Assembly (NCBI GenBank): GCA_030587475.2
Contig: JAUQYZ020000038.1
Coordinates: 1 to 33,589, forward strand
Direction: 5' to 3'
From: Candidatus Sigynarchaeum calidifontis
GTDB lineage: Archaea; Asgardarchaeota; Lokiarchaeia; Sigyniarchaeales; Sigyniarchaeaceae
DNA: 33,589 nucleotides
The notes below the pieces were generated by a model that saw nothing but the letters and a program-made list of their open reading frames with translations, did not search any database and had not been told where the DNA came from. The translations under genes and the position numbers were made by a program. Below, piece after piece: positions 2,413 through 18,608 of the stretch. Within the stretch, counting starts at the first letter, position 1, and every line of letters begins with the position of its first letter.

Positions 2413-2534
2413 GTTGGTATGCGATGAGGATATTCGTTATCTGAACTTAAGTCTGTTTCGCGGGCAATACAGATAAATACGGGACGGATGCATAATATAC
2501 GAAAGACACGAAGAGACTGACGGAATGGAGGTCG

Positions 2535-2921
2535 ATGCACGTGGATTATTTTCTGATTGAAAACAAGAAGATAGGAAAGGTCAAGATCCGGTTGTACAAG
2601 GATAAAGCACCTCGCACGATAGAGAAGATAGAAAAGTCTCTTCCCCTCGATCTTGACTTGTCTCGATGGGGAGACGAGCTTTATGGCGCGATTCCTGTTG
2701 AGGCAGAGCCAGAGAACCCTCAAGAAGAATGCGAAATAGGGGAGGTCGCATATTGGCTCGATGGGCCGGCGTTTTGCATCTTGTTTGGGAGAACGCCGGC
2801 ATCCCGGGGCCCAAAACCCCGCTTGATCTCTCCAGGCAACGTGTTCGGAAAAATCGAAGGTGACCCTTCAATCTTCAAGGAATTCGACACGTTCAAGGGA
2901 AAACTTCTGCCCGGTAAATAG
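2535..2921 (+). CDS. Cyclophilin-like fold protein (DUF369/TM1367-like)
   Basis: APRT..LP..RWGDELY..GEVAYW..GPAFCILFGRTP..NVFGKI signature. GGAGG precedes the ATG. Confidence 0.85.
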   Translation: MHVDYFLIENKKIGKVKIRLYKDKAPRTIEKIEKSLPLDLDLSRWGDELYGAIPVEAEPENPQEECEIGEVAYWLDGPAFCILFGRTPASRGPKPRLISPGNVFGKIEGDPSIFKEFDTFKGKLLPGK

Positions 2922-2927
2922 ATGACC

Positions 2928-4019
2928 CTAATACCTTGCGAACCGTTCGTAAGCATCGAACAAGGCTATCACGTTCTCGATACGCGTGTCGGCTTGAATG
3001 TTATGCGCCGTGCAAATGATGTAGCCACCATTCCGCCCCAGCGTCTCCTTGCACAAAGTCTTTACCTCGGCCTCGACCTCGACGGGGGAGCCGAAACGAA
3101 GCGGGCCTTGCAACGAGACACCGCCGTGGAAGATCAAGCGGCTCCCGAACTCTTCCTTGAGGGCAGCATGATCCATGTCATAAACGAGCGGCTGTATCGG
3201 GTTCAAGATGTCGAGACCGCACTCGATCATGTCCCCGATGATCGGGTGGATGGACCCGCATGAATGGTGCATCACGGGTACACCAGCAGCCTTCGATATT
3301 TGTATGAATTCCTTGAAGCCAGGCATGAGATTCTTCCGCCACACGTCCACCTGGCAGAACAAGCCGTTCTGGGTGCCAAAATCGTCCCCCGTCACGATGA
3401 CATCGATCTTTCCCCTCGCCGCCTTCAAGATTCTGCGCAAGTACTCGCGATAGAACTCGCGTATCTTGTCCCGCACGGCGATGAAGATCTCGTTGCTTTT
3501 GCGGCGCATGTCGATCAAGATCTGGTCGACCCCGCGCAAGTACATGGCAGGCTTGAGTTGGGCGATGCGGTTGAGCCGGTCGCCCATGAACATGGTCACG
3601 CGGTCGCCGCAAGCCTCGCATTGCTCGGCAATGGACGAGTAATCGTACCAGTCCGGGCTTGGCCATTTTGGATACTTCATGACGTCGTCCACGGTCTTGC
3701 AATCCTTCAAGGGATGAACGGTGACCGCCTTGTAGGATCCCCTGAACTCGCCTTCGCCCGTGAATATTGTTTGCCTCGGAACACCCCAGATATCATCTTC
3801 ACTGCCGTCCCCGTGCTTGGCAAGAGGAGGGCCGATATATCTCGGGCCATCGATGTATCGGAAGTCGATATCGAGTTTTTCCAGCAGATCCTCGCGACTC
3901 TTCAAGCCATAATGCTTCATCAAGCGCTTGTCGATCTCGGGAACTGCCCAATAATCACGGAGGACGCGATCGGGCAGCTCGCGCCGGAGAAGCTTCTTGA
4001 ACCGTTGCTTCGAGTTCAT
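2928..4019 (-). CDS. Uroporphyrinogen decarboxylase-family (URO-D/MtaA-CmuA-like) protein
   Basis: DIWGV, LRG.DQILID, GDDFGTQ, HHSCGS, GLDILNPIQP, FHGGV and GGYIICTAHNIQ motifs. Its ATG overlaps the upstream stop (ATGA, 4016-4019). Confidence 0.88.
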   Translation of the reverse strand: MNSKQRFKKLLRRELPDRVLRDYWAVPEIDKRLMKHYGLKSREDLLEKLDIDFRYIDGPRYIGPPLAKHGDGSEDDIWGVPRQTIFTGEGEFRGSYKAVTVHPLKDCKTVDDVMKYPKWPSPDWYDYSSIAEQCEACGDRVTMFMGDRLNRIAQLKPAMYLRGVDQILIDMRRKSNEIFIAVRDKIREFYREYLRRILKAARGKIDVIVTGDDFGTQNGLFCQVDVWRKNLMPGFKEFIQISKAAGVPVMHHSCGSIHPIIGDMIECGLDILNPIQPLVYDMDHAALKEEFGSRLIFHGGVSLQGPLRFGSPVEVEAEVKTLCKETLGRNGGYIICTAHNIQADTRIENVIALFDAYERFARY

Positions 4020-8103: not shown

Positions 8104-8871
8104 TTAATCCCGAATGCGTAGTCCCTGCCGGTAAAGAATGGCCGAGATGATTTGTAAAATATACCCGAATATCGTGTCCCATTTGGCCCATTCTGATATT
8201 CCAAAAGGTCTTGTGACCGATATCTCCATGATTGACAGAGTGTAGATAAACCCTATGTAAAACAATAGCGATGCGAAGATGATAGCAATTGATCGCACGC
8301 GTAGCTCGCCCGTCGATTCTTTGGCGAGCTTGATATTGATGCCCATGTTCATCACGAGGCCAATCACCACCCCAAGAACTGCCGCGGTGCATAAAACGAA
8401 AGAATAATACGTCCACGTGAGCTGCGGGATGAATATGAATAGGACACCAATTGAAACGATGATGAGAAACTTCGTAATGATCCATCTGTTCCAATTGAGC
8501 GTCAACTCCAGCGGATACACCTGGCCCGCGATGAGCAGCATCAAGGATGAAATTCCGATAATGAAGATGGGTTTCACCATTTTAAGAACGAAGAACAGAA
8601 TGGCCCGGTGCGATTCGCTGTAACCCGGAAAATCGCCCTCTAACCAGCTCGAGTCAAAGAGGTGTAAAGCCGATCCCAACTCGGAGATTGAATATCCTAG
8701 TTGGTAACAAAAGAGAACGAGGAAAAAGAATGCATAGCCGACGAAAAACTTGTTGGTGAAACCGGCCGCCTTCGACTTCAGATAATTTTTCCGGAAGAAC
8801 AAGAACATGTACAAATAGACGACGACGATGACGAATCTTGCAATGAGCACGAGTTCATTCTCAAATGCCAT
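8104..8871 (-). CDS. Hypothetical 7TM membrane protein (paralog of the N-terminal half of 8911-10356)
   Basis: Seven hydrophobic segments; basic loop after TM1 (RKNYLKSK); high identity to the neighbouring protein. Confidence 0.8.
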   Translation of the reverse strand: MAFENELVLIARFVIVVVYLYMFLFFRKNYLKSKAAGFTNKFFVGYAFFFLVLFCYQLGYSISELGSALHLFDSSWLEGDFPGYSESHRAILFFVLKMVKPIFIIGISSLMLLIAGQVYPLELTLNWNRWIITKFLIIVSIGVLFIFIPQLTWTYYSFVLCTAAVLGVVIGLVMNMGINIKLAKESTGELRVRSIAIIFASLLFYIGFIYTLSIMEISVTRPFGISEWAKWDTIFGYILQIISAILYRQGLRIRD

Positions 8872-8910
8872 GGCAACTCACTTTTTTGGATCGTTGTTCA
8901 ACCTTTGCAT

Positions 8911-10356
8911 TCATAAGGATTGATGACGCACTAAGAACGACGCGACCACCAGGCCGATCAACAGCTTGTCGACGAAGATCGTGAAGACGAGTAACCATTC
9001 GGTGAACGCGAAGCCCAAGAATGGGCCATACGAACCACCACTGTATTCGCCGACGACGATGAGATGGAAGAGGAACAGCCCCGCACCGACCGAGAGCGTG
9101 ATGATCGCGGTTAAATATCCGGCTATATGCCATTTTCTTGTTTGTTGCTGCTTGAAAAACATGCCAACGAGGATCCACGTGAAAATCCCTGCCAGGAAAA
9201 AACCACCGAATCCTATATAGGCCGAGATTAAATGAAGGTTTCTATAAGCGCTATCCTCTTGAAATAGGCCGGCCATGACCAAGCCGATCGACGTGAGTAA
9301 ATATAGTATGAACATGATAACAGCTAGGACCTTGTTTGTAGGACGCAGCAACTTGAGGAGAACGATATAATATGGTACAAGGCCGATCCCGGCAACCCAC
9401 AATGCCGCGGTGAAAAAATACCAGCCGTTTGGATTTTCAGCATACACGCCGAGAGTGCTCACGGTTTTATCAAGCATCGTAAACTCGTCTGGATACAATG
9501 CACGGGCTACAATGAGAAACACGAAGAATGCGACGATTACCCCTAGAAAATACAGGAGAAAACGGTTCCTCGGTTTGAGGGCGAGCGAACGGGCAATGTC
9601 AGACTCGGTCGGCGTGATACGAAGTCCTTGGCGATAGAGAACGGCGGAGATAGCTTGTAACACCGAACCAAACACGGTATCCCAAGCGAAATCCCCGAGC
9701 GAGATCTCCTTGATCTCCAGGGTCCAGATGAAGCCCATGTAAAACAAAATCGAGGCAAATATTATGCTGATGGACCGCCGGCGCAATTCACCAGTGGAAA
9801 CCCTCGCGATCTTAACATTCACTCCTATATTCATCAACAAGCCAATGATTACACCCAATATGGCAGCTAGCAAAATGATAAAAGAATATGTCGTCCACGT
9901 GAGCAAGGGGATGAATATCAGCATCACGCCAAGCGCGACGAGGAGCAAGTACTTCGTAATGATGATCTTGTTCCAGTTAAGCGTCAGTTCGAGAGGGTAT
10001 ACCTGGCCCGCGATGAGCAACATCAGGGATGAAATCCCAAGAAGGAAGATGGGCTTCACGAGGTTGTAGAGAAAGAGCACCGGGGCCATGATCACCTTGT
10101 CTCCATAACCCGGAAAATTGCCTCGAATCCAATCGGTCGGAAAAAGGTTGAAATAATCGCCCACTTCGGTAAAAGCATAGCCTACCTGGAAACCAAAGAG
10201 CACGAGAAAAAAGAACGCGTAACCGATAAAAAATTTGTTGATAAAACCGGCTGCTTTCGACTTCAAGAAATTGTTCCGGAAAAACCAGAACATGTAGAAA
10301 TATACCCCGATGAGACAAACCCGCGTGATAAGAACGATTTCGTTTTCAAAGGCCAT
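8911..10356 (-). CDS. 7TM membrane protein fused to a C-terminal DUF998/Frag1-like membrane domain
   Basis: The N-terminal ~248 aa align with 8104-8871. The C-terminal part has TVSTLG, GLFQED..LHLISA and TEWL motifs typical of the DUF998/Frag1 clan. Confidence 0.75.
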   Translation of the reverse strand: MAFENEIVLITRVCLIGVYFYMFWFFRNNFLKSKAAGFINKFFIGYAFFFLVLFGFQVGYAFTEVGDYFNLFPTDWIRGNFPGYGDKVIMAPVLFLYNLVKPIFLLGISSLMLLIAGQVYPLELTLNWNKIIITKYLLLVALGVMLIFIPLLTWTTYSFIILLAAILGVIIGLLMNIGVNVKIARVSTGELRRRSISIIFASILFYMGFIWTLEIKEISLGDFAWDTVFGSVLQAISAVLYRQGLRITPTESDIARSLALKPRNRFLLYFLGVIVAFFVFLIVARALYPDEFTMLDKTVSTLGVYAENPNGWYFFTAALWVAGIGLVPYYIVLLKLLRPTNKVLAVIMFILYLLTSIGLVMAGLFQEDSAYRNLHLISAYIGFGGFFLAGIFTWILVGMFFKQQQTRKWHIAGYLTAIITLSVGAGLFLFHLIVVGEYSGGSYGPFLGFAFTEWLLVFTIFVDKLLIGLVVASFLVRHQSL

Positions 10357-10465: not shown

Positions 10466-11983
10466 TTAAAAGAGATCGTAGAAGTTGAGGTGCTCCTTGC
10501 AAACAGGACACGTGCCCCGCATTTTTAACCATGCAACGAACTCGTCGAGATGGGCGAGTTTCAAGCAGACCGGACATTGAATTGCCGGGGTTTCCTTGCC
10601 GACACTCCCGCTCATTTTTGATTCCATCTTGTCGATGAGGCTCGTGATCTTGTCCGATTTCTCGCCAATATCGATTCCTTTCACGTTCTTTCCGACGATA
10701 TGGCGCACATCAACGACCTCTCCACATATGGAACACTTGTGGACTTGCGTGTTGCAGTTTGCACAGCGGTCTTGCTGCACCACGTCGACTGCCTGACCGC
10801 AATTCCGGCAATAATAATTTTGCTGGAACACGCTTGCCTTGCGAACGGGTAGATTGTAATTTCCCTTCAAGAACTGGATAAACTTGTCCTTCAACCGGGA
10901 GTGGTATTGCTTGTTGAAGGCAATGGTGAACACGAGAAAAAAACCGAAGACCAGCAGCACGAACCCGATAATGACGAGAAACCATGCGGGGTCAAGCTGC
11001 GAATCGATGATGACAATGCTCGTTATGATGATGTCCACGATCGCCAACAAGTGGAGAGCATCTTCCAACCACGAACCAACGTTCTTCACGATGCGATCCT
11101 TCTTGTCGAAGTAGTAAAGGTTTACTTCCATGGTGAGCAAGGGGGAGATGTATAGGAAGATAAGGACCAAGGGCAGTGATATGGCGAGGGAAACAAGCGT
11201 GATGTATGAAGCATTCCAAAACACTTTTTGCAAGTCTGGGATGACCACGAAGTTCTCCAGGATCAGGATCGCTATGCCGAGGACGAGTGTACTGCCGTAG
11301 CCGGCCCGCTTTATGCTTGCGCCGAAATTGGTCTTTTCATACTTGGCATTGTATTCCAGGAAGTAGAAATGCTGGCCATAAACGAGCTGGTGGAGTTTCA
11401 TGGTGAATTCAATGACGTGGATCCGCTTGTCGATGACCCACAAGATGAAATACGAGAAGACGAGTGTCCCTGGTACGAATATCCCCACGAGTAAAGGCAC
11501 GTAGGTATGCACCGCTGTCTCGAAAGTAGCAATGTTGATGAAAGGAACCGGTGTCGTCGTGGCCGGATCGAGGGCGATGAAATACATTGCATACAAGAGC
11601 AAGTAAAAGGCAATGAATGCGATAGCCGCGCAGATAGCAAGCCCGTAGAGTATCTCCTTTCGGGATTCGGTCATTTTGATCGGGATTTTTAACGTCTTCT
11701 TTTTTGGCAGAACAGAAGCCGTGTCGATGAACGATAGCTTCACGAGGTTCTTCTTAAGCTCGGTATTCCATATTTCCAGGTTCTGGCAGCGGAGACAGTG
11801 GTAAATGTAAATCGATTCAGATGATTGGATGCGGCTCAAAACCTGGAGCTTTTTTCGATCCCGGTCGTTGTTGACCTTCTCGATAAACGAAGAAACAAGC
11901 TTTTTACCCTCTGGGGAGGTCATCTTCACCCGTTCGACCTCATCATTGAAGCAAAGCGGGCAGAGAAGTTTTTTTTGACCCAT
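10466..11983 (-). CDS. Polytopic membrane protein with Zn-ribbons and a C-terminal RING-like domain (putative E3 ligase)
   Basis: N-terminal CPLC...CLRC; about 6 TM helices; CRNC...CANC; then CSIC-x49-CPVC-x4-H-x2-E-x3-W-x6-CPVC. Confidence 0.75.
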   Translation of the reverse strand: MGQKKLLCPLCFNDEVERVKMTSPEGKKLVSSFIEKVNNDRDRKKLQVLSRIQSSESIYIYHCLRCQNLEIWNTELKKNLVKLSFIDTASVLPKKKTLKIPIKMTESRKEILYGLAICAAIAFIAFYLLLYAMYFIALDPATTTPVPFINIATFETAVHTYVPLLVGIFVPGTLVFSYFILWVIDKRIHVIEFTMKLHQLVYGQHFYFLEYNAKYEKTNFGASIKRAGYGSTLVLGIAILILENFVVIPDLQKVFWNASYITLVSLAISLPLVLIFLYISPLLTMEVNLYYFDKKDRIVKNVGSWLEDALHLLAIVDIIITSIVIIDSQLDPAWFLVIIGFVLLVFGFFLVFTIAFNKQYHSRLKDKFIQFLKGNYNLPVRKASVFQQNYYCRNCGQAVDVVQQDRCANCNTQVHKCSICGEVVDVRHIVGKNVKGIDIGEKSDKITSLIDKMESKMSGSVGKETPAIQCPVCLKLAHLDEFVAWLKMRGTCPVCKEHLNFYDLF

Positions 11984-12109: not shown

Positions 12110-13129
12110 CTAGTATCTTCCATCCACGAGAATCCGTTTCAACACGGGAGCCATGACTGAAACGTACCGGTGGAAGCCCAGGTCGTTCGCGTGGGTACCA
12201 TCCGCGGTACAATCCATGTCGTCTGGCCCGATCATATCCAATCCATCGACATAATGCACGTTCCGATCACCAGATCGAACTAGCAGATCATATGTTTCTT
12301 TTATCGCTTGGCGAACCTTGTCGCAAAGCCGGCGAAACTCCACATTCCACAGCGCTGCACCGATATGCTGCATGTTGTTTATCAAGATGGGCATCTTGGG
12401 ATGCCTGGCGCGGATCACGTTCAAGAACGCTGGATATCTCGACTGGATCAGCCCTTCCTCCACCGGCGCCGTGAGGTTCCCTCCTGCGTCCATCACCAGG
12501 CATGATGCATCGATCTGCGAGACAAGCTTTGCAACCTCCGGCTCGCACTTGCCGTTTCCCGAGAAACCCAGGTTGATGGTCTCTACATCGAGAAGACGAC
12601 CAATTTGGGCCGGGTACGCGAGGCCCGGCCGCGATGCATATGCCCCTTGCGTGATAGACGAGCCGTAGAACACGATTGGCTTTTCGATCGCGTGCGGAAC
12701 GGGTGGCTTGATGTCCTCATCGACACAGATAGATTTCAGTTCGATGGACGCGTACGTGGGCAAATAAATCGCATATTCGTGCGCCCGGCTGCTGTCTGTC
12801 TCCGCGACGCTGATGAAATAGCCATCGCGGGGCGGGATGAACGTGTGGATGTAGCGCCCGTCGGCATAAACGTCGATGCCACACTGCCCGGCTCGCGAGA
12901 ATTTCTCGTAGGCACGGGAGGGCTGCATAACGATCTCGATGCCGATCGACGCCGTGCGGGCCTTGAACCGGATGCAGCCACCCGCCGTGTTCGTTGCAAG
13001 AAACGCCACGTCCTTGCGCAACTGGCTGAACGACGAGGAGGGAAGCCGGACGAGCTCGTGATTCCCTTTCCCGAACCAGTAGAGCCCTTCAACATACCCT
13101 TCCAACTGATCGATGGTATATTCCACCAT
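12110..13129 (-). CDS. SGNH/GDSL hydrolase (GxDLY-type N-terminal domain), putative carbohydrate esterase
   Basis: GIDVY, YLPTY, FYGSSITQG, NLGFSGNG and DGTHANDLG. Confidence 0.88.
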   Translation of the reverse strand: MVEYTIDQLEGYVEGLYWFGKGNHELVRLPSSSFSQLRKDVAFLATNTAGGCIRFKARTASIGIEIVMQPSRAYEKFSRAGQCGIDVYADGRYIHTFIPPRDGYFISVAETDSSRAHEYAIYLPTYASIELKSICVDEDIKPPVPHAIEKPIVFYGSSITQGAYASRPGLAYPAQIGRLLDVETINLGFSGNGKCEPEVAKLVSQIDASCLVMDAGGNLTAPVEEGLIQSRYPAFLNVIRARHPKMPILINNMQHIGAALWNVEFRRLCDKVRQAIKETYDLLVRSGDRNVHYVDGLDMIGPDDMDCTADGTHANDLGFHRYVSVMAPVLKRILVDGRY

Positions 13130-14921: not shown

Positions 14922-16058
14922 TCAAATGGATTCCCATGCGTCTTCGAAGAACGGCCGTTCTTTCACCCACGTTTCCGTGAAACTCGTGTATTGTATATCG
15001 GTGACTCTTTGGGCCACGCCGTTCAAGGATATCACGTGTGATCGAGACCATGTGGCGTGCAATCTGCCGTCGGGGCCTTGCGAAAGTGTCGGGTAGCCGA
15101 AGCTCTCCGGTTCTGCATTTCCACCATCATCTTGATGCCATTCCAGCAAGTTCTTGCGATATGACCACGTCACCCCGTCATCTTCCGATAATGCCACGCT
15201 CAGCGGGTTCCGCGATTTTTGTTCGTTGCCGGGAGATGGTGCGTGGTTATAGATGATGGCGATGTTCCCGCTGGCCAGTCGCATCATGTGGAAGCCGCCT
15301 GCAGGGTTCGGCAAGACCCCGTTCGTCGCGGGAGTCCACGTGAACCCGCCGTCTGTGCTCGTCGATTCGAGCATCTTGCGCATCGGCTTGCCGTCGTTCC
15401 GGAAAAGCGCCAGGAGCGAGCCATCCCGCCGCTCGATCACGGTTGGCTGCTCGACTTGGCGCCCTTTCTTGGATTCATATCCCGCGGGAACGAGATCCGG
15501 GTGGAGATCGACGAAGCTCGATTGTCGCCACGTCTTCCCCTTGTCAGCAGAGATGAAAAAAACGCCCCGGAGGTACTTGAACTCGACGTAGGCGGGGAGC
15601 ACGTAGGTTCCCTTGGTCGTGAGTATGGGGGGATTCTTCACGCCGCGGGAAACGAACGGGTACACGTTTTTCTCGTCCTTCCAGGACCTTCCCCGGTCGG
15701 TGCTCGTCTTGTGCTTCGCGAACACGAAGCTCCAGCCCCAGCCCGCGTTGTAGAACAAGTGCAAGACCCCCGTGTCGGGAGCGACCCACAAAACCGGGTT
15801 CCCGTCGAAAAAAAACCTCGATTTCAAGCCCCACGCTTTCGGCTGCTCCCAGGTCTCTTGCCCGGGCAGCTTGCGAGAAATGTAGATTTCCTCGTCGATA
15901 TGTGCCTCTTTTACGGCCCAGTACCATGCAGCCACGAGCTCCCCGTCCGGGAAAGCGACGATGGTGCTACAATGCGCGTGGAGCAGCTTGCCGGCAACAG
16001 GTGTAGTGATCGTCTCGATCGAGATGCCGTTGGCTTGCTTGATCATGGGTTTTTTCAC
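14922..16058 (-). CDS. BNR/Asp-box beta-propeller, sialidase-like protein (paralog 1)
   Basis: Four Asp boxes (STDRGRSW, SADKGKTW, STDGGFTW, SEDDGVTW); HAHCST, RNPLSVA and GYPT; no signal peptide seen. Confidence 0.85.
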   Translation of the reverse strand: MKKPMIKQANGISIETITTPVAGKLLHAHCSTIVAFPDGELVAAWYWAVKEAHIDEEIYISRKLPGQETWEQPKAWGLKSRFFFDGNPVLWVAPDTGVLHLFYNAGWGWSFVFAKHKTSTDRGRSWKDEKNVYPFVSRGVKNPPILTTKGTYVLPAYVEFKYLRGVFFISADKGKTWRQSSFVDLHPDLVPAGYESKKGRQVEQPTVIERRDGSLLALFRNDGKPMRKMLESTSTDGGFTWTPATNGVLPNPAGGFHMMRLASGNIAIIYNHAPSPGNEQKSRNPLSVALSEDDGVTWSYRKNLLEWHQDDGGNAEPESFGYPTLSQGPDGRLHATWSRSHVISLNGVAQRVTDIQYTSFTETWVKERPFFEDAWESI

Positions 16059-16080
16059 GACGTGGTTTTAGCAATCGGAA

Positions 16081-17208
16081 TTATTCCTCCCAGGTCGACG
16101 AGAAAAACGGCTTTTGTTTTATCCAATCCTCCCTAAATGACGTGTACTTGATATCGCTAAAACTGGTCTTCTTGCCGTCGACCTCGGTCGTGTAGCTATA
16201 CGTCCACGTGGCATGGATCGTGCCGTCAGCGCCCTGGGTCATGGTCGGGTAACCCCCGATCCGCAGGTGCACGTCGTCGCCGCGCGCCTCCATGATGTTG
16301 CGCCGCCACTTCCACGACTGCCCGTCGTCGTCTGAAATGGCGATAGACAAGGGATTGCGCTCGAACCCGTGCCCTTCCTCGGGAACGGGCGCGTGGTTGT
16401 AGATCACGGCCAGGTTCCCCGATTGCAATCGTATCATATGAAAGCCCCCGCCAGGATTTGGCAGGATGTAGGGCTTGGCGGGAGACCACGTTTCGCCATT
16501 GTCCGTGCTCACGGTTTGATACATCTTCCCTACCGGCCGGGCTGCGCGCATGAGTGCCCAGAGTGTACCATCTTTGCGCTCGACAACGGTCGGCTGGAGC
16601 ACGAGCCGGCCCCATTTGCGTTTCCGGTTCTGGAGCACGACATCGGGCACCTCGTCATCCGGTATCTTGACCCGCCCGCGTTCTTTCCAGGTCTTGCCTT
16701 GGTCATCCGACAGGTAGAACACGCTGAAGTAATCGCGAAACTCGATGTAGGCGGGCAAGACATAACGTCCTGTTCTCGTGACGATGGGCGGGTTCTTGAT
16801 GCCGCGTGATATGAACCAGTAGAGTTTTTTTGGCGCTGACCATGAGTATCCGCGATCGTCGCTGTACACGCAGCGGGGATTGCAAGCTGCCCAGCCGCCC
16901 ATGGAATTCACGTAAAAGAGCCACAGCCGGCCATTGTCCGGGGCGATCCAGACCGCCGGGTTGCCCGTCATCATCCGCGGATGAGATATCATGATTTCTG
17001 GCTTCGTCCACTCCTTTTCCCCGGGCTTCTTTCGGCAAGCATATATTTTTTGCTTCCGGTTCGCCTCCTGGATGGCCCAGTAGAAAACCGCGAGCAGCTC
17101 GCCATCCGGGAATGCCACGATGCCCGAGCAATGGGCATGGTGCAGTTGTCCCGGTACCGGCGACGTGAGCGTTTCTACCTTCAACCCCTTCGCTGAAATG
17201 ATGGCCAT
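16081..17208 (-). CDS. BNR/Asp-box beta-propeller, sialidase-like protein (paralog 2)
   Basis: Four Asp boxes (SDDRGYSW, SDDQGKTW, STDNGETW, SDDDGQSW); collinear with paralog 1. Start set at ATG 17208 to avoid overlapping the upstream gene. Confidence 0.85.
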   Translation of the reverse strand: MAIISAKGLKVETLTSPVPGQLHHAHCSGIVAFPDGELLAVFYWAIQEANRKQKIYACRKKPGEKEWTKPEIMISHPRMMTGNPAVWIAPDNGRLWLFYVNSMGGWAACNPRCVYSDDRGYSWSAPKKLYWFISRGIKNPPIVTRTGRYVLPAYIEFRDYFSVFYLSDDQGKTWKERGRVKIPDDEVPDVVLQNRKRKWGRLVLQPTVVERKDGTLWALMRAARPVGKMYQTVSTDNGETWSPAKPYILPNPGGGFHMIRLQSGNLAVIYNHAPVPEEGHGFERNPLSIAISDDDGQSWKWRRNIMEARGDDVHLRIGGYPTMTQGADGTIHATWTYSYTTEVDGKKTSFSDIKYTSFREDWIKQKPFFSSTWEE

Positions 17209-17213
17209 GTCGT

Positions 17214-18608
17214 TCAGCACTCCTTCAATTTTCTTATCAGTTGCTTTTGCTTGTCGTGGGAGAACCCGCACGAGGAAAGGTAGGTGGTGATGCCGCCATT
17301 ATCCCGGATAAAACTTAGGGCTTGCAAGATGCGCTCCTCCCGTGTGTCTTGCCCAGAAAGCAAGTAGGCGGCCACGATTTTCTCCTCCGGGACACCAAGC
17401 AACAGCTCGACGAGGGCGGAAATCACGCCCGTGCGATCTTTACCCGCCCCGCAGTGGATCAGCGTGTTACCGGGGGATGCAAGCATGGCCTCGAACATTT
17501 GCCGCACGTTGTCCTTGCAGCCGATCAAGCCCTTCGTGTAATCGGAGGCCGGAACATCATCGGCGTTGAAGTTCAGCGCGTGGATGGTCTGGCCGAGTTT
17601 CTTGGCGAGAATTTGATCGTCCGGATCCCTTTCCACCTCTTCCGGGCGGAGCAAGTCTATCAAGGTCTTGATCTCGTTCTCCACGAACCATTTCTCGAGC
17701 CGCGGGTCGCCTGAAAAGGCCGCGGGTGCCAATGACCGGAATACCTTGCCCGTTCCCTGCACTGGCCTGAAATTGCGGAGATAATAAACGTCGTGCACGT
17801 GCTCGCAAAAGCTCGTGATCGTTTCGACCGACGCGGGAAGGGCATCGGCACCGAACTTCGCGAAAATGTCTTCGACAAGGGAGAGGAACCAGTCCATAAA
17901 GTATTGACGGGTCGCATTCGCCTCGCCGAAACCCGCGTTGAGCATGTACTTGGTGAAATATTGCTGCTCCGCTTCGCCCATTACGGCGTTGAGCAAGTGC
18001 TTCGTGCTTCCATTGGGGACACTTTTACCTGCGAGCACGCCTTGCAAGTGTATCGTTTCCACCAACATCGGATAGTGGATGGCATAATAGCCGAGGTAAT
18101 CGGAATGGTGGTGGGCGATCGCAGCGAGCTCGAACTTGTGCAAGATGCTCGACACGCGTTTCTTGAGGAAAGACGCGGTGGCGGATTCCTTGGAGCTCGT
18201 CCCGGCACGTGCCTTATCATCGATCAACAGACCCCCGTGCTTGGAACGCTCGGCAAGGACCGAGATGGTGCCGGCGTGTATGAACTCGCGGACGGCCTCT
18301 TCTGCCGGAGTCGCGATGAAGACGTTCACGCGCGGCATATCCTTCAAATGCAGCGAGATCATGTTGCAAGTATTTCCAAATGGGACGAGCAGCGCGATCA
18401 CGAGCTCCTCGCTAAATAATATCTTGAGTGCATCGAGTATCACGTTAGCATCATGGCCAGGATCGACCATGAGCAAGAAATCTATCTCGATCCCCGGGCC
18501 GGCGAGGCTACTCGCTGGGGACGTGACCTGGTACAAGCCCGCTATGAACGAGACCTTTTTTCCCCACGCGGCAAGCCTGGCGATGAGATCTTCCTTAACT
18601 TTATACAT
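17214..18608 (-). CDS. Tyrosine/dual-specificity phosphatase (Y_phosphatase3-like) with a long N-terminal, possibly degenerate nucleotidyltransferase-like region
   Basis: C-terminal RNFR..VFRS, IKTLIDL, HCGAGKDRTG (CX5R) and YLLS. N-terminal ~270 aa include GIEIDFLLMVD. Confidence 0.8.
   Translation of the reverse strand: MYKVKEDLIARLAAWGKKVSFIAGLYQVTSPASSLAGPGIEIDFLLMVDPGHDANVILDALKILFSEELVIALLVPFGNTCNMISLHLKDMPRVNVFIATPAEEAVREFIHAGTISVLAERSKHGGLLIDDKARAGTSSKESATASFLKKRVSSILHKFELAAIAHHHSDYLGYYAIHYPMLVETIHLQGVLAGKSVPNGSTKHLLNAVMGEAEQQYFTKYMLNAGFGEANATRQYFMDWFLSLVEDIFAKFGADALPASVETITSFCEHVHDVYYLRNFRPVQGTGKVFRSLAPAAFSGDPRLEKWFVENEIKTLIDLLRPEEVERDPDDQILAKKLGQTIHALNFNADDVPASDYTKGLIGCKDNVRQMFEAMLASPGNTLIHCGAGKDRTGVISALVELLLGVPEEKIVAAYLLSGQDTREERILQALSFIRDNGGITTYLSSCGFSHDKQKQLIRKLKEC

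Follow-up and report, generated by a model that had tools for sequence, protein, structure and literature searches.

A predicted membrane-embedded RING protein of Candidatus Sigynarchaeum calidifontis with an Asgard-specific six-helix module

Architecture of the gene product

Our analysis concerns a 33,589-nucleotide stretch of DNA from the Asgard archaeon Candidatus Sigynarchaeum calidifontis (contig JAUQYZ020000038.1; the whole stretch is hereafter called the window) and, within it, an open reading frame (ORF) whose product, P0001, joins a bundle of transmembrane (TM) helices to a C-terminal zinc finger. Profile alignments and a structural model indicate that this finger is a genuine, if unusual, member of the RING superfamily. 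Based on these observations, we predict that P0001 is a membrane-embedded RING-type E3 ubiquitin ligase, a reading that we regard as fairly probable.

An earlier note, made from the sequence alone, had described a split N-terminal zinc ribbon, about six TM helices, a second ribbon and a RING-like tail. All of the parts preceding the tail were recovered in the sequence, in alignments and in AlphaFold2 (AF2) models (Table 1), and the tail spacing given there proved exact: C417-S-I-C420-x49-C470-P-V-C473-x4-H478-x2-E481-x3-W485-x6-C492-P-V-C495. The six hydrophobic helices span approximately residues 111-137, 160-184, 229-250, 258-283, 306-327 and 334-357. In 14 full-length homologues that are 43-84% identical, the invariant residues are C63, C66, C392, C395, C407, C410, C417, C420, C470, P471, C473, H478, D480, E481, C492, P493 and C495; at W485 and K496 the conservation is 90% or more. 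The first ribbon pair, C8/C11, was found in 12 of the 14, and the remaining two lack the N-terminus. The conservation pattern of the tail likewise holds across 17 C-terminal domains, with the ligands invariant. Because the ligand pattern is conserved across homologues, we conclude that selection maintains it and that it did not arise by chance.

The copies of this protein in databases (P0002 in the protein collection, 485 amino acids, and the ESM Atlas record) begin at M21. The region 11924-11983 codes for residues 1-20, and with them the CPLC half (residues 8-11) of the N-terminal ribbon. Because this stretch is conserved among orthologues, the ATG at 11983 appears the likelier start.

Table 1. 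Coordinates of the P0001 gene and its parts in the window, with two related loci elsewhere in the host genome
Feature	Position	Strand	Description
Whole coding sequence	10466..11983	minus	ORF of 505 amino acids plus stop codon, ATG start; protein P0001
N-terminal domain, residues 1-100 (predicted cytoplasmic)	11684..11983	minus	Split zinc ribbon (C8xxC11 ... C63xxC66) that brackets a small sheet and two helices; from alignment and AF2 secondary structure
Six-helix TM module, residues 106-376	10856..11668	minus	Conserved loops 186-228 and 284-305, predicted cytoplasmic; from AF2 model and alignment
Second zinc ribbon, C392xxC395-x11-C407xxC410	10754..10810	minus	Directly upstream of the RING; from alignment
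RING ligand pair 1-2, C417-S-I-C420	10724..10735	minus	I419 at the E2-contact position; aligned to ligands C1/C2 of RING-H2 domains
49-residue insert within the RING, residues 421-469	10577..10723	minus	Conserved helix 445-457; I450, M453 and E454 invariant
RING second half	10496..10576	minus	C470-P-x-C473 (ligands 3-4), H478 (5), E481 (position 6), W485, C492-P-x-C495 (7-8), K496 (linchpin position)
Paralogue P0048	Host genome (G000), contig C233:11572-13023 (L038:5546-7030)	minus	494 amino acids, 39% identical; same architecture including the RING insert
Host ubiquitin cluster	Host contig C26 (L004:200-2861; L023:607-1743)		E1 of 409, E2 of 175 and JAB/MPN protein of 297 amino acids

Identity of the C-terminal RING

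The tail of P0001 lies below the Pfam cut-offs of both zf-RING_2 and Prok-RING_1, and no match to the latter (PF14446, gathering threshold 29.1 bits) was obtained for P0001 at all. Its relatives were more informative. Among 17 family members, 13 matched zf-RING_2 at E<=0.05 (best 2.1e-6) and seven matched Prok-RING_1 below threshold (best 8.8e-7). The short forms P0021 and P0022 (380 amino acids), which carry neither the insert nor the N-terminal ribbon, read CxxC-x12/13-CPxC-x4-H-x2-E-x3-W-x6-CPxC. P0022 aligned with positions 2-44 of the 44 in zf-RING_2 (26.6 bits, E 7.2e-6) and matched Prok-RING_1 at 1.1e-4.

A homologous cassette was found behind a zinc ribbon in a set of soluble or single-pass Asgard proteins (P0038, P0042-P0047); the pattern that they share with the six-TM family is CxxC-x12-CPxC-x4-H-x-D-[H/E]-x3-W-x6-CPxC. 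These proteins exceed the Pfam cut-offs for zf-RING_2 (36 bits), for Prok-RING_1 (33-40 bits; 39.9 for P0042 and 33 for P0038) or for both. Their sixth ligand position reads H-x-D-H, and once H-x-D-D, in contrast to H-x-D-E in the six-TM family; they have no insert, and their carriers are not polytopic. When the tails of the TM family were compared with these domains by hhalign, both halves of the finger aligned with 99.4% probability (E 3.5e-21) and the insert appeared as a single gap.

The same conclusion was reached from solved structures. A profile built from the second ribbon and the RING (P0001 residues 385-505 and relatives) matched the RING-H2 ligases RNF24 (5.5e-8), EL5 (3.2e-7) and RNF126 (3.6e-7), followed by Arkadia/RNF165, RNF4, AMFR (1.6e-5), listerin and synoviolin (6.3e-5). 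A profile made from the TM family alone was weaker, but RING-H2 ligases were still at the top (AMFR 0.003, RNF126 0.0033). The AF2 model of the C-terminal module superposes on RING/U-box domains. Profile searches, profile-profile comparison and the fold of the model thus agree that the RING-like tail of the earlier note is a RING-type domain. These comparisons place the cassette in an Asgard zinc-ribbon-RING type that is related to Prok-RING_1.

Eight metal-ligand positions with cross-brace spacing are present, with two deviations from the canonical arrangement. Hidden Markov model alignments equate C473 with RING ligand 3, H478 with ligand 5 and E481 with ligand 6. The fourth ligand of site 2 is C470, in a CxxC knuckle that replaces C-x-H at ligands 3-4, so that the overall pattern is C4-H-E-C2. 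The glutamate at position 6 is the second deviation, and both it and the 49-residue insertion, which had been flagged as oddities, are real: relatives have histidine at this position and the short forms lack the insertion, which is lineage-specific. Based on the His-to-Glu exchange between homologues, we infer that E481, or the adjacent invariant D480, ligates zinc.

In Asgard archaea the cassette is carried by many proteins, both soluble and membrane-bound. P0045 has a hydrophobic stretch, a ribbon and a RING besides DUF11/NPCBM_assoc domains, and resembles a single-pass carrier of the ribbon-RING tail. Another carrier, seen in other Asgard families and about 1000 amino acids long (L043:449-3439, on contig C1 of genome G015), joins a Dna2/PD-(D/E)XK nuclease and an SF1 helicase (AAA_11/AAA_12) to a RING of this type at its C-terminus (zf-RING_2, E 3.4e-5).

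The membrane module and the history of the fusion

Within 15 residues of the membrane, the six-helix topology puts 20 lysines and arginines on the side that bears both termini, against one on the opposite side. All of the cysteine clusters lie on the positive side. Given this asymmetry, we assign both termini to the cytoplasm, and with them the RING, the two ribbons and loops 186-228 and 284-305. A location outside the cell, which the earlier note would have counted against its reading, is thereby removed as an objection. The AF2 model of residues 100-385, built from 22 sequences of both subfamilies (those with and those without a RING), has a mean predicted local distance difference test (pLDDT) score of 85.9 and a predicted template-modelling (pTM) score of 0.84. 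The modelled fold has six long helices and one that is amphipathic, and the two conserved loops come together in a small cytoplasmic sheet. Twelve residues are invariant in both subfamilies: H198, Y207, R226, G230, L233, P271, P281, R297, N301, G303, L310 and D317, the last of which is embedded in the membrane.

Searched separately with Foldseek against the PDB, the TM module matched no solved structure, Hrd1 included (best E 0.69). Against the Atlas, only two clusters of Asgard hypothetical proteins were retrieved (TM-score 0.63-0.65), one of them mostly from Thorarchaeota, and an ESM Atlas feature search with residues 100-385 gave no usable match. The TM domains of the ABC (ATP-binding cassette) exporters CydDC and PCAT1 recurred at E of about 1 with a TM-score of about 0.2, and a relation to exporters was dropped as too weak. 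Based on the alignments and the model, we take the module to be an Asgard-specific membrane family that has no known fold relative and is able to work without a RING.

The family is small, with 16 clusters in a collection of 5.8 billion proteins and 33 representatives at E<=1e-3 in one of 1.84 billion. Homologues with a named source belong to metagenome-assembled genomes of Candidatus Sigynarchaeum/Sigynarchaeota, Lokiarchaeia and Promethearchaeota, and all carry the annotation 'zinc ribbon' or hypothetical protein. Across 400 genomes of the phylum, matches over the full length were confined to the host's own family: two in the host (G000), one in G281 and two in G282. RING-less homologues of the TM module occur in about 50 genomes of other families (one was named as Hodarchaeota in one source); they are 340-430 amino acids long, match residues ~110-380 and have no cysteine cluster. 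The final 40-90 residues, taken on their own, find many unrelated proteins of Asgard archaea. P0001 is therefore a fusion, specific to its lineage, of two modules that move independently of each other, and the distribution of its parts indicates that this fusion was late, local and restricted to one Sigynarchaeota-like family. On the best reading, the protein was built from the common Asgard zinc-ribbon-RING cassette and the Asgard-specific six-TM module. In the literature on Asgard archaea with Hrd1 or on Asgard membrane-anchored RING proteins, we found no description of a six-TM RING family. What is new here is the polytopic carrier, whose fold has no known relative, together with the replacement of a His ligand by Glu and the conserved insert within the finger.

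Predicted ligase activity and competing explanations

The host genome, which is 89% complete, encodes ubiquitin, ubiquitin-activating (E1) and ubiquitin-conjugating (E2) enzymes, a JAB protein and Cdc48, in agreement with the ubiquitin system that the earlier note had expected of an Asgard host. Ubiquitin-fold genes lie on contigs C61 and C26. The E1s are of the ThiF type; one of them, on C26, is followed by an E2 (P0049) with an HPN...C motif and by the JAB/MPN protein, while C61 holds a 985-amino-acid open frame with two ThiF (E1-like) matches. A second E2 is encoded on contig C42. There are three or four Cdc48 homologues and 19 zf-RING_2-like matches in the genome. About 2 kb beyond the C26 cluster lies an ORF of 378 amino acids with about three hydrophobic segments, which scored 18.8 bits against zf-RING_2 in the genome scan and had no Pfam match at E 0.01. 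A second candidate ORF combining TM segments with a RING is found at L020:406-1659.

The residues that would contact an E2 are retained in the family. I419 (after C1), W485 (in the helix), P493 (after C7) and K496 (at the K/R linchpin position after C8) are all invariant or at least 90% conserved. Three of the equivalent positions are known from the Caldiarchaeum subterraneum RING protein srfp, in which I30Q, W58A and R69A abolish or impair ubiquitylation in vitro (PMC5654768). A Helarchaeia cascade of E1, E2 and RING protein also functions in vitro (bioRxiv 10.1101/2023.07.25.550441). Like P0001, these proteins are RING-H2-type fingers from archaea that have ubiquitin, E1 and E2, and they share with it the isoleucine after C1, the helix tryptophan and the lysine or arginine after C8. 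srfp has, in addition, an extra cysteine near ligands 3/4 (PMC5654768) that recalls the CPxC knuckle of P0001. In contrast, srfp and the Helarchaeia RING proteins are small, soluble and operon-encoded, whereas P0001 is a six-TM protein of 505 amino acids with no ubiquitin genes nearby, a glutamate at position 6 and the insert. Complex prediction with the host E2 and the ribbon-RING module, run without controls, gave no answer (score 0.00) and is evidence neither way.

Taken together, these analyses suggest the following mechanism. The RING would fold as a cross-brace, with site 2 formed by C470, C473, C492 and C495 and site 1 by C417, C420 and H478 together with E481 or possibly D480. The E2~ubiquitin conjugate of the host would dock on the RING via I419, W485 and P493, and K496 would serve as the linchpin that keeps it closed. 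Ubiquitin could then be transferred to lysines of membrane-associated proteins or of the protein itself, with the six-TM module giving location and probably recognition of a substrate or signal. If active, the protein would work in the manner of a polytopic RING-H2 ligase. The RING identity, its conservation, the topology and the host's set of ubiquitin, E1, E2, JAB and Cdc48 are borne out by the data, and E2 binding, ligase activity, any substrate and a role in quality control are predictions. It is a tentative further step, and one that we think doubtful, that one Asgard lineage fused a ligase cassette to a new six-helix membrane fold and so obtained a working polytopic E3 that marks proteins for handling by Cdc48/proteasome or by the ESCRT system of endosomal sorting complexes.

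Several observations weigh against a ligase. The zf-RING_2 (PF13639) match of P0001 (residues 412-505) reaches 17.8 bits, under the gathering cut-off of 27.3, and covers model positions 13-44 only; it is limited to the second half because the insert, which divides the finger in two, splits the domain. With glutamate in place of the canonical ligand, zinc binding at site 1 may be weak or absent. No gene for ubiquitin, E1, E2, another ubiquitin-system component, ESCRT or the proteasome was found near the gene, its orthologues or its paralogue. Finally, the ribbon-plus-RING profile also aligns, in both sub-domains, with the C-terminal tails of the GATOR2 subunits MIOS (3e-5), WDR59 (2e-4) and WDR24 (3e-4), and with the C-terminal modules of the IFT-A proteins WDR19, IFT122 and IFT144 (about 1e-4 to 1e-3). 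A Foldseek search with the whole model returned nothing at E<=1e-3, and its top weak rows were GATOR2/SEA subunits. The zinc modules of GATOR2 and IFT-A are mainly structural glue for assembly and not ligases; they sit on beta-propeller/solenoid proteins, and their E-values are weaker than those of the RING-H2 ligases. Apart from its bearing on function, this resemblance raises the possibility that the RING tails of protocoatomer-type proteins are connected with the Asgard cassette.

Most of these points would also fit a cassette that is a non-catalytic interaction or assembly module (for dimerization, partner docking or regulation) attached to a six-TM transporter, channel or sensor, with no ubiquitin transfer. 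The occurrence of the TM module alone in other Asgard families, which implies an autonomous function, and the invariant D317 within the membrane together with the conserved cytoplasmic loops point the same way. However, the family-wide conservation of I419, W485, P493 and K496 argues for catalysis, since the equivalent residues matter in an archaeal RING E3 (PMC5654768) and a linchpin lysine or arginine is of no obvious use to a purely structural RING. We consider a non-catalytic role unlikely. It is far less likely that the cysteine clusters are ribbons only and that P0001 is a membrane-tethered nucleic-acid binder or an anti-sigma-like or other transcription regulator. Pfam matches to generic ribbons (DZR, Zn_ribbon_6, TBPIP_C) are numerous, and three CxxC-pair ribbons could be counted beside the RING-like part. 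Nevertheless, the whole-protein Pfam scan gave sub-threshold matches only, those to ribbons reflect generic CxxC pairs, and RING domains give a specific alignment that spans all of the final 80 residues and takes in W485 and P493, neither of which is a ligand.

The least credible explanation, in our view, is that P0001 is a true homologue or forerunner of Hrd1/gp78, with a TM funnel that retrotranslocates or recognizes misfolded membrane proteins and a RING-H2 finger that ubiquitylates them for Cdc48/proteasome. The order of the parts is the same, with a TM bundle followed by a cytoplasmic finger of the RING-H2 kind, the AMFR and synoviolin RINGs are among the profile matches, and the host has Cdc48 homologues. 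To this extent the 'Hrd1-like' layout proposed in the earlier note stands, but kinship beyond analogy is not supported, and the note itself had cautioned that shared architecture is no proof of homology. Hrd1 has eight TM helices, in contrast to the six seen here, and no similarity was detected in the TM part. Many unrelated RING-H2 ligases score equal to or above AMFR and synoviolin; the ligand pattern is C4-H-E-C2 rather than C3H2C3; a zinc ribbon stands between membrane and RING; and the fusion is restricted to a single lineage, with the TM module RING-less elsewhere. A search of the 89%-complete host genome for DER1 (PF04511), the Derlin/Der1 part of the Hrd1/gp78 partner set, gave no match, but control genomes were equally silent, so this carries little weight. 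Descent of Hrd1 from P0001 is thus not supported, and we regard the resemblance as one of layout only.

Membrane-embedded ubiquitin ligases are regarded as a eukaryotic hallmark, with roles in endoplasmic-reticulum-associated degradation (ERAD), endocytic sorting and organelle quality control. To our knowledge, those archaeal RING E3s whose activity has been demonstrated to date are small and soluble. If the doubtful reading above, of a working polytopic E3, holds, such an E3 would mark membrane proteins or report on the state of its TM module. Prokaryotes would then have arrived independently at the Hrd1/MARCH-type solution, and membrane ubiquitylation before eukaryotes would gain an experimentally accessible model. 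The finding brings, in any case, a testable cytoplasmic fragment and a six-TM family with a confident model.

The P0001 gene appears monocistronic. Downstream of it (8104-10356) are two adjacent multi-TM genes of 255 and 481 amino acids with no Pfam match. These are absent from the equivalent position at the orthologous loci (L025-L027), and a 'receptor plus E3 module' formed with them was dropped since the pairing is not kept there. The RING-less homologues (L031-L037) are flanked by a convergent ABC-transporter ATPase gene with overlapping 3' ends (e.g. L032:1339-2478 and 2455-3579), and their other constant flank is a divergent gene of about 310 amino acids with no Pfam match. This arrangement may be mere synteny or a functional hint, and the ATPase signal was judged too weak for use as a clue to function. 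Upstream of the P0001 gene, at 12110-13129 and 14922-17271, lie a GxDLY/GDSL esterase gene and a pair of sialidase-like BNR_2 genes. They are syntenic at the orthologues that are 62% and 51% identical, which we interpret as ordinary synteny among relatives, and they recur near the orthologues in L025-L027 and in the P0013 contigs.

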